Positions 25,422 to 28,429 of a stretch of DNA of 64,000 nucleotides are shown here, one piece after another. The DNA is from Harriotta raleighana. Lineage: Eukaryota. Position numbers and translations under genes: made by a program. The notes beneath the pieces were generated by a model, which saw only the letters and a list, made by a program, of their open reading frames with translations, did no database searches and was not told the DNA's origin. Positions within the stretch are counted from its first letter, which is position 1. Each line of letters opens with the position of its first letter. Location of the stretch: contig JBNZDD010013714.1 of NCBI GenBank assembly GCA_050575255.1, positions 6,978,412 through 7,042,411 on the forward strand, read 5' to 3'.

Positions 25422-26658
25422 AGTGATGTGCTTTGTCTCATTAGAAATCCCTGCACATTGTACCTGATTAATGCATGATATACCATTTCCATTCATTGAA
25501 GTGAGATATGGAAACCACAGGCCAATAGCTAGCCTATCTAGTTAGCTTAGAGCAATGCAGGACTTTGATTTCAAGTATCTTGAGGGAATATAAATCAGTC
25601 CAATTTCTCTGCCTTCACAACTATTGTTTTGCATCAATTCATTCACTTGCACAATCATGCATGTGCACAAAGATACCGATATGAACATTGTCACTATGAC
25701 TTCTTTCAAATCAAAGGAATAAATAACTATGAAGTGTGGACAACACAAGGACGTTCTTTACATTTTTTGAAGAGAGCGATGAATGCTGTTTTATGTTTGA
25801 ATGGTCCAAGGTGATGGTAGTGTCACATTTTTCCAATAGTTGCTATGGTTGCACTTGTGTAGTGTGCTCTTATAGCATAAGTTATTTAATATTAAGCATT
25901 TGGAGTACAATAGTCTATTCAGATTTCTCAGTGAAAGGTTGCTTAGAAGAACTGTTCAGGAACTACTTTGTGTTAGTGTCGTGCAAATTATTTTACTGGA
26001 GGCAACAGGGCACATTTGTATGAAAATTACAAACGTCAAGGTTGAATTACTGGTTCAATGTAATTGTACTTCATTGCTTTTAGGAGTCCTTGTAAAACCC
26101 TCTAATTTTTATATCCAATTCCCTGGAATTTGGCTTCCTGATCCCACCACACTCTTCGTTTAACTTCTGATAGCAGAAATGTCACAAACAATTAATTATT
26201 GAAACCAACCATGCTTTATAACAGCCTTGCATTCCAATATAATTCTAGCAAAACTGCTGTTATTACCCTTTTTGAAAAAAACATCAACCTATTTGTTTTT
26301 TCATACTGTTGCCCTGAATCACTTTATACTCATTGAGGAGGTCTTTAAATTTTTATGAATAACCATCTTCACTATATTTGTTGCAAAGATTCTCTAAAGC
26401 TATGAACCACAAACAAGCTCTCAAGAACACAAAACAGTCAATCTATTGAAATAACAAATAATGGTTTAAACGCATTTGATGTGGAATAATTGGAATACAT
26501 TATGGAACACCATAAATCTCAACCCATTCCTCTAAATCATTGTGGGACGTCAGTGGATTTGGAAATGCTTTCATTGTACTTTGCAGTGCTTTGCAGTTCT
26601 CGTATTGAAGTATTAAATAACAGGGTTAAAGAACCTTCCAAAGTCAGAGAAAAGGATA

Positions 26659-26782
26659 CGGGAGACAATCGTGTCGCGGGAGATCCCGACGGCGGTCGAG
26701 CTGCTGCTGCCGGACGAACTGGCCAGACACACTGTGTCCGAGGTACCAGGGCCGTCACTGAATCACCCAGTGCAGCAGCTGA
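26659..26782 (+). pseudogene. Histone H2B-like C-terminal fragment, 5'-truncated and frameshifted
   Basis: RETIVSREIPTAVELLLPDELARHTVSE (26659-26742), a 1-nt deletion in the Gly codon, then TRAVTE. It aligns to canonical H2B [35 protein letters not shown] with 25 identities over 34 positions plus the frameshifted Gly (hand count). A possible original stop TGA lies at 26780-26782 if a second 1-nt deletion is allowed. Confidence 0.9.
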
Positions 26783-26883
26783 GGAGCCAGTTGGTTTTGG
26801 AGCCTTTCACTACACTGGGCCTGGTTCCCGCCTTTTTGAATATCGTCGAGGCGGGCGACGAGGACAAGGAGCGGTTGCTGGAC

Positions 26884-27343
26884 TGTTGTTAACTGTTGTT
26901 GTTGCTTTTGCTGCGTTTATTGTTGCTTTTTTTGTTTATTTATTGTTGATATTGTTGTTTGTTGTTGTTGTTCCCTCTGGCCCCCTGACCTTTCCCCTTC
27001 CCCTTTCTTCTTCTTCCCTCCTTCCGNTTGATATTGTTGTTTGTTGTTGTTGTTCCCCCTGGCCCCCTGACCTTTCCCCTTCCCCTTTCTTCTTCTTCCC
27101 TCCTTCCGTTTCCCCCCTTCCCTCCGTCTTCCCTCTTACCCCTTCTTCCCTCTTACTCCCCTTTCTCCCTGATTTTGCACGCCACTCACCTCTTCCCCCT
27201 TGCCCACCTTTCTCCGCCCTTTTCCTCCGTGATTTCCCCCTTGCCCCCCTTTCTCCCCCCTTTTCCTCCCTGTCTTTGCCATACACTGCCTTTCCCTCCG
27301 CCTCCCCCCTTACCCTCTTTTCCCCCTTTCTCCTCCGCTTCCG
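26884..27343. repeat. (TTG)-rich then C/T-rich low-complexity tract
   Basis: TTG runs followed by a polypyrimidine tract. Includes an 81-bp duplication around N27027. Confidence 0.9.
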
Positions 27344-28429
27344 CGACTGTTTGTGGGACACTGCTGTACTTACTTTGGCTGCCGCGTTTCGCCTACAAAT
27401 ATATAGTCGTCTTTTCCTGCTCTCCTTCCTCCTATCCCGATCCCTCCCCTTGCCATCTTTCCCATCTTTCTCCCTTAACCCCACTTTCATTACTGTTTGT
27501 GGGACACTGCTGGGCGCAATTTGGCTGCCGTGTTTTCGCCCACAAATATACAGTCAATTTTTCCTACTTTCCTTCCCCCCGCACCCCGTGCTCTGATCCC
27601 TACTTGACTGTACAGCGCCTTGGAACATCCTCCCAATGCGAAAAGCACTATATAAATGTAATTTTTGATTGATTGAGTGAATGATTGATTGTAATAGAGA
27701 AATACACGCTGATAGTAACACAAAGATTCATGAAAGGTACCAGTAATTGGAGCACCCAATAGAAATTCTAATAGTTTCATATCACCCCCTTGAACATCTT
27801 GGATGTGACATTTGTATCACACTGGATGGAACGCCAGATAGCTTTCTGAAAGTACCTAGTGTTTTTTTTTACTGAAGTATTTTGATCCATTTTGAATGCC
27901 AGGTCTTTAATCTCGTTTGCCAATCTTTGGAGATGACAGCATTGACTAGGGATAGTCACCAGATCACTGCAATGCTATGGACCTGTCCAACTGTTTTCCT
28001 TAGATTCCAGATGAGAATAGAAACATCTATCTTACTGTAACAAAATATTGCAATGCATTTTTAGTCTTTTGTTTTACTTCCAATGTCATTGATCTATAGA
28101 CCAAATGCCAGAGTTCCATCAAGGCAGCAAACTTTGATTGCACTAGCTGTCTCAGCCCATTGGAGCTAATCTGTTTTATCACAGGCTTCTAGAAATGTCA
28201 CAACAGAAAGTGCATAAACCAGCATATGTCAGCCTTCCTGTCTGATGAACAGTATCTCTGAATCAGGGTCACACCAGCATTCTTCATCCATCATGCTTGA
28301 CTGGTACACAGGACTTGTTTGAGGGCAACAAAAATAGGATGAAAGCCCCTTTAAGCTAGTGCTAACAACAGCAACACCTCGGGGCATGATAGAATTGATT
28401 AATATGGGCCCATTGATGAGCTCCTCTCT

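Follow-up and report, generated by a model that had tools for sequence, protein, structure and literature searches.

How did the end of a histone H2B coding region come to stand upstream of the tail of an L2 retrotransposon? The question is raised by a block of roughly 1 kb within a 64-kb stretch of Harriotta raleighana DNA, hereafter referred to as the window. The small number of retrocopies in non-mammalian vertebrates has been attributed to the tail specificity of LINEs such as L2 and CR1 (PMC5470649, PMC3747384). L2 ORF2 is strict in recognising its cognate 3' tail (PMC4176376, PMC3747384), and LINE tail specificity has been cited as a limit on retrocopy formation (PMC5470649). Moreover, replication-dependent histone mRNAs normally lack even a poly(A) tail, making an L2 route notable for H2B. 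Our analysis revealed a decayed, multi-copy composite in which a C-terminal fragment of H2B is followed by low-complexity tracts, a SINE hairpin present in duplicate and, last, an L2 tail, all on the plus strand (Table 1). On balance, we favor the view that it belongs to a family of non-autonomous retroposons that was mobilised by L2 and whose 5' part derives from H2B; the promoter of a histone gene at a source locus likely drove its transcription.

TABLE 1. Features of the block and its borders, with positions counted along the window and depths given as multiples of flank depth.
Feature	Position	Strand	Remarks
Possible left TSD	26646..26652	+	7 bp, AGAGAAA, weak; chance ~0.03
Six bases between possible left TSD and H2B match	26653..26658	+	read from the sequence
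H2B-derived piece	26659..26742	+	frame 1, H2B residues 87-114, 21/28 identical
H2B match resumed in frame 3	26742..26759	+	1-nt loss; 5/6 residues; continues weakly to ~26774
GC/CpG-rich segment, multi-copy	26760..26883	+	83x at 26768, 144x at 26801, 697x at 26848
TTG-rich tract	26884..26976	+	one contig spans 26832-26975
Pyrimidine-rich tract, including artefactual second 81-bp copy	26977..27305	+	44-427x by bin
Single N plus 81-bp repeat of 26946-27026	27027..27108	.	scaffolding overlap, not biological
Tandem unit 1	27306..27432	+	pyrimidine lead, SINE-derived hairpin ~27345-27408, pyrimidine trailer
Tandem unit 2	27446..27579	+	76% like unit 1; SINE-derived hairpin ~27492-27555
L2 3' end	27580..27665	+	loose pyrimidine-rich lead, then conserved tail 27604-27665
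Terminal (TTGA)n repeat	27665..27691	+	~6.5 units, two private changes; 712x at 27677
Possible right TSD	27696..27702	+	7 bp, AGAGAAA, weak; chance ~0.03

The H2B-Derived Part

A tblastn comparison of a fetched H2B with the 64-kb window gave the frame-1 match of Table 1 (E 1.4e-8) and no other match below E 9, while phmmer matched the piece to H2B chains of the PDB (E~1e-5). Past this match the block reads GTRAVT in frame 3, corresponding to GTKAVT of H2B, and one base must therefore have been lost near 26743. The initial annotation had placed a 1-nt frameshift at that very position and is borne out in this respect. Its H2B identity also holds, but the C-terminal 35-40 codons that it counted from 26653 are reduced to ~34 codons starting at 26659. 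Upstream of this position the H2B frame no longer resembles H2B and contains a stop. The seven replaced residues require at least 10 base changes, with three of the codons requiring at least two each, and may reflect either a diverged H2B source or long decay.

A functional H2B gene would carry an intact histone-fold ORF, while the block holds residues from 87 onward only and is frameshifted. Nor does it resemble a processed pseudogene of a replication-dependent H2B, which would have a 3' stem-loop after the stop and no foreign tail. The histone stem-loop model RF00032 found no match in the block at E<=10, a motif pattern for the same stem-loop found none even with up to four mismatches, and a search of the block for a poly(A) signal was likewise negative.

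In addition, frame 3 remains open over 26742-27026 and includes a hydrophobic run. This open frame was rejected as a gene: an equally uninterrupted run arose in 4.5% of shuffles when this frame was considered and in 10% when any plus frame was, and searches for a homologue, an Atlas hit and a Pfam domain were all negative. Concerning frame 1, no candidate homologues appeared among proteins of 43-139 aa and none among 312 at longer lengths. Matches among cluster representatives numbered 13, and the eight examined were duplicated or frameshifted ordinary H2Bs, none of them with the downstream sequence of the block. A viral source was also considered and dismissed: the one stretch that passed among 109 candidates was a chance antisense match within a long ORF of no relation, and none of 587 in metagenome contigs passed.

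Composition and True Length of the Block

The segment 26653-26890 contains 19 CpG dinucleotides and has an observed/expected ratio of 0.90, compared to 0.32 for the window; both flanks carry 1.2 CpG per 100 bp. The block had been described as CpG-rich throughout, which is correct for this segment but not for the poorer middle tract (o/e 0.47). Part of the segment (26755-26890) is predicted to fold (z -2.3). The TTG-rich and pyrimidine-rich tracts expected downstream are present in that order, whereas the GC-rich sequence between them and the H2B piece, previously called unique, turned out to be multi-copy, at about 700 times the flank depth at 26848.

The pyrimidine-rich tract is interrupted by a single N, on either side of which 80 of 81 bases are identical (26946-27026 and 27028-27108). 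Near-identical duplications adjoin all ten single-N gaps of the window, with best alignments of 50-1,103 bp, indicating that the scaffolder wrote overlapping contigs twice. With the 81-bp copy and the N removed, the true length of the block is ~957 bp instead of the ~1.05 kb given in the initial annotation. The mis-join of unrelated contigs suspected at N27027 can also be set aside, given that the gap shows the same overlap duplication as the other nine. Bases differing from the read majority are common to both of its sides (26998/27080 and 27003/27085), and thus both sides come from one copy. The gaps lie at 27027, 34990, 37084, 37272, 38620, 38777, 47485, 49402, 49894, and 62303, and duplications of this kind could yield false tandem-repeat findings in the H. 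raleighana assembly.

SINE-Derived Units, L2 Tail and Ends

The two SINE core pieces reported earlier do exist, although not as separate pieces: they are portions of a ~146-bp unit present in two copies that are 76% alike, each with a ~67-nt SINE piece. The second hairpin is 91% like the SINE copy at 12289-12354. The piece corresponds to one predicted hairpin of the SINE 3' body, with z values of -2.1 and -2.4 in the block and -3.2 in that copy. Its agreement with a hairpin prediction, together with its duplication, makes the block a test case for the role of conserved SINE bodies. The strict definition of a SINE requires a small-RNA head with Pol III A and B boxes, and this copy has neither: neither a tRNA head nor an A or B box was detected in the block, and Rfam and ARAGORN gave no match, while a control SINE head has a B box. 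This copy also lacks a reverse transcriptase. Elsewhere in the window, tRNA-like SINE heads lie at 1549-1620, 36593-36664, and 56188-56248, the first being a tRNA-Ala TGC according to ARAGORN, and at least two SINE families have a common 3' end.

The proposed L2 nature of the tail was confirmed by alignment, in which the tail was identical to three L2 tails of the window at 43-45 of 53 positions, as opposed to 34-36 of 53 for three SINE tails. Against a second L2 type at 28.9 kb the figure was 33/53. The window L2 tails resembling that of the block follow ORF2-like ends within ~150 bp, judging from a motif that we take to mark the end of ORF2. However, the window L2 copies end in (TTG)n and the block in (TTGA)n, and the 64-kb window yielded no L2 ending in (TTGA)n that could serve as partner. 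The predicted fold of the tail was no better than that of shuffled sequences, either for the block (z -0.2) or for a window L2 tail (z -0.35). The tail type nearest that of the block, in each case ending in (TTG)n, is found in five short L2 3' ends at 14176-14248, 6329-6401, 29269-29343, 25352-25423, and 56388-56461. A 5'-truncated L2 fragment at 28380-28965 has a decayed ORF2 C-terminus, a (TTG)n end and the different tail type (33/53).

Both copies of the AGAGAAA duplication are where they had been reported, the left one separated from the H2B match by 6 nt and the right one from the tail repeats by 4 nt. As a target site duplication it is weak, since random zones of similar size have a common 7-mer 3% of the time. 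A flank-to-flank joint that would represent the empty site was not seen among the 15 joints listed of 374.

Copy Number and Contigs of Other Copies

Three raw whole-genome runs of one sample (X6, X7, and X8) and one contig set were placed on 25900-28300 at a likeness cut-off of 82%. The stretch was partly present in five of the eight runs listed (share 0.09-0.18), in none of them to half or more, and no RNA run holding it was among the runs listed. Two flank contigs differ from the stretch at 0 and 1 bases, so that the contig run must come from the same or a very close species. The flank depth summed over 16 bins was 7.3 (X6+X7+X8); it implies a 0.64-Gb genome, hence the true copy numbers may be higher than those given here.

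All 13 bins from 26629 to 27681 exceeded or equaled 44 times the flank depth, and the edges are sharp, with single-copy depth before 26629 and after 27762. The H2B part reaches about 80-150x, including 150x at 26714, where ordinary histone genes could contribute some depth. They cannot supply the 83x at 26768, which lies past the clear H2B match. The GC-rich segment, the spacer between the SINE pieces and the tail end reach 450-700x (among others 464x at 26893, 485x at 27411, and 669x at 27430). The SINE piece itself stands at ~17,000x and the tail portion common to other repeats at ~6,600x. Reads matching human DNA are removed by a filter that could thin the H2B part, and the number of H2B-bearing copies is therefore a lower bound. 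For the same reason a larger H2B-free parent family, for which the five-fold depth step between 26801 and 26848 might speak, was not relied on. The middle tract dips to 44-84x across 26953-27195, in part because reads are split between the two artefactual 81-bp copies.

Contig pieces matching the stretch number 15,570. Among the eight listed, four run from the H2B piece into the GC-rich segment at 11-15% divergence (19-25 differences per 147-168 bases) and a fifth runs from 26832 into the TTG tract (to 26975), while none covers 26976-27466 or connects H2B to the tail. In many diverged copies, therefore, the H2B piece and the segment downstream of it go together. The two options originally left side by side, a non-autonomous family and a one-off retrocopy, can thus be told apart: multi-copy depth in every bin and bridging contigs from diverged copies speak for the former and against the latter.

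The copies are heterogeneous, as the majority base at 26714 is carried by 96 different contigs. X6 reads along the terminal repeat drop from 2,402 at 27677 to 1,066 at 27681, as expected of variable-length tails. Joints at which about one ~146-bp unit is left out or read again, seen among the 15 of 374 joints listed and in 12 rows of letters between joints, point to copies varying in the number of these units. A shorter variant, in which 26723 is joined to 26859 and 26724-26858 is absent, was represented by 13 reads of X6, 0 of X7, 1 of X8, and one contig. The listings, dominated by SINE reads, covered 40 of 258 base differences and 24 of 3,061 loose ends and showed no 5' end of another copy. 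Within the 64-kb window no second copy of 26653-26900 was found.

Origin and Rival Explanations

The block has the traits of an L2-mobilised non-autonomous retroposon, namely an L2-homologous 3' end, a short tandem repeat at its terminus and multiple copies, and is likely one dead copy of such a family. A composite L2-tailed module would have become attached to an H2B gene, most probably through insertion at its 3' end, where it would have displaced the normal terminus; we infer that a histone gene altered in this way is the simplest source of the transcript. As the block has no Pol III head and repeated copying needs an outside promoter, the Pol II promoter of the histone gene at one or a few source loci is proposed to make the chimeric RNA. 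By ending in an L2 tail, such a transcript would escape the tail-specificity limit on retrocopies. The L2 ORF2 protein would bind the tail in trans and copy the RNA from 3' to 5' by target-primed reverse transcription, and frequent early stops would leave promoterless copies beginning inside the H2B coding region, like the present one. A template switch could have given the same fusion, but as a promoterless single copy, which would leave the amplification without explanation. The divergence of 11-15% between copies suggests an old burst. Its age would be some 50-75 million years if the rate for Callorhinchus milii SINEs applies, which PMC5499810 gives as 1.0-1.1e-3 per site per million years.

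Could the block instead be the 3'-terminal part of an autonomous LINE of the L2 clade, with the H2B fragment and the SINE hairpin captured by its long 3' UTR and its ordinary 5'-truncated copies mobilised in cis? The tail is of L2 and not of SINE type, L2 tails in the window are preceded by pyrimidine-rich 3' UTRs, a separate lineage might well have a (TTGA)n end unlike that of the window L2s, and the family could hold ORF2 beyond the 5' extent of this copy. Still, ~900 bp pass without a trace of ORF2, as opposed to an ORF2-like end within ~150 bp of the window L2 tails. Pfam gave no match in the long open frame, and no protein fusing the H2B piece to these frames was found, although the latter are weak negatives. 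We regard this origin as unlikely, yet deserving attention. The dip of 44-84x, spanned by none of the eight contig pieces listed, might also be taken to mean that two repeats, one with H2B and the GC-rich sequence and an unrelated one with the SINE pieces and the L2 tail, are stacked at this locus only. However, family-specific depth is alike on both sides (697x, 669x, and 712x), every bin is multi-copy, and the 5' part lacks its own tail. Low-complexity tracts diverge fast, dips can stem from the read filter, and stacking is accordingly a rather improbable account.

Amplification at the DNA level, by which a one-time chimera was multiplied in a tandem array, a histone-cluster spacer or segmental duplications and this copy is a stray, orphon-like piece, draws on the fact that histone genes occur in repeated clusters. 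Depth alone does not demonstrate dispersal either, as it cannot separate dispersed copies from arrays. Nevertheless, this copy ends exactly at the L2 tail repeat and lies by itself in AT-rich surroundings; the 64 kb contain no further histone piece. The copies are heterogeneous with apparently variable tails, and we give this scenario little credence. A one-off chimeric retrocopy or an assembly mis-join, to which the N inside the block and the weak TSD might point, is hardly credible. It is largely refuted by the multi-copy depth and the bridging contigs, and the gap at the N is an overlap of the same kind as the nine others, with non-majority bases common to both sides. An origin from an H2B-targeting Tx1 element was also considered and rejected: the tail is of L2 type, the available text of PMC4494074 contains 0 occurrences of histone or H2B, and the literature search gave no support elsewhere.

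A bolder version of the L2-mobilised, H2B-headed family can be formulated, in which an H2B gene itself acts as retroposon master. Its stem-loop end would have been lost to an L2-tailed module, its own germline promoter would have driven transcription, a tail-specific LINE would have made hundreds of copies, and the longest of these would be whole H2B retrogenes with a new C-terminal extension. We put this forward as a tentative idea, somewhat doubtful at present.

Comparison With Known Elements

The elephant shark elements CmiSINEs (SINE2-1_CM and SINE2B-1_CM) and SacSINE1-CM are, like the block, non-autonomous and modular with an L2-type 3' end (PMC5499810). The abundant tRNA-headed SINEs of the window fit these holocephalan SINEs by description, not by sequence, in having a tRNA-Ala-like head and two families with a common 3' end, and on this description a cartilaginous fish is the likely host. 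The block carries a ~67-nt piece of the 3' region common to the window SINEs. In contrast to CmiSINE and SacSINE1-CM, it lacks a tRNA head and Pol III boxes, is ~950 bp long, has a 5' part from a protein-coding gene and shows a tail that resembles L2 more than the SINE tail and ends in (TTGA)n. Of what defines these elements (a tRNA head, a CORE/Deu body and a common 3' end of ~160 bp), only the ~67-nt internal piece matches the window SINEs and the tail differs, the names being applied by description. Copy numbers also differ, being in the hundreds for the family of the block and in the hundreds of thousands for the elephant shark SINEs (PMC5499810).

The nearest working analogue is SVA_F1 (MAST2-SVA), which is transcribed from upstream and was amplified as a subfamily (PMC4859970). 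SVA_F1 and SVA 5' transductions resemble the block as composite non-autonomous retroposons with a host protein-coding piece and internal tandem repeats. However, SVA depends on L1, which is relaxed and recognises poly(A), and it acquired MAST2 exon 1 through splicing (PMC4859970), whereas the partner of the block would be a tail-specific L2 and its host piece is a coding 3' end of the intronless type. Host RNA pieces fused to a LINE-derived tail with SINE-like amplification are also known from snoRTE/PlatSINE1, SINEU, and MeloSINE. Their heads derive from non-coding RNAs (snoRNA, U1/U2, and 28S rRNA), while that of the block is protein-coding, and in the available text of the corresponding papers no mRNA- or histone-derived head and no L2 setting was found among SINEs with unusual heads (PMC7245038, PMC5499810, PMC4494074). 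Retroposed H2B is also represented by the mammalian H2B.K and H2B.N retrocopies; these are scattered copies of mostly polyadenylated variant mRNAs with no LINE tail, unlike the block, a multi-copy chimera with an L2 tail and no poly(A) signal (PMC8857922). Bipartite non-autonomous LINEs have been reported for RTE, Ingi, Vingi, and R2 only, in a text whose available part contains 0 occurrences of histone (PMC5786205).

The block works like a SINE or an SVA, although this copy falls outside the strict SINE definition. It is real, multi-copy and unusual, and is best read as a non-autonomous, LINE-dependent retroposon with a new feature, its histone-coding 5' part. An H2B-headed L2 retroposon was not found in the open-access literature; Repbase and Dfam lay outside this scope and may hold a catalogued consensus.

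Significance and Surroundings

An H2B coding piece on an L2 tail at no fewer than ~80-150 copies would represent a way around the tail-specificity limit, and a protein-coding gene would join the known sources of retroposon heads. If whole H2B retrogenes do form the longest copies, an mRNA encoding a protein would have supplied the head of a retroposon family, and LINEs of the stringent type would have a general means of duplicating genes in mass. Furthermore, repeat copies of this kind can inflate the number of histone genes counted in such genomes.

With respect to the surroundings, no host gene was identified among the 41 stop-to-stop frames of at least 90 aa in the window, seven of which were scanned against Pfam with no matches. 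A G-rich minisatellite with a unit of ~48 bp occupies 40124-40367, inside a CpG-rich zone at 39.5-41 kb.
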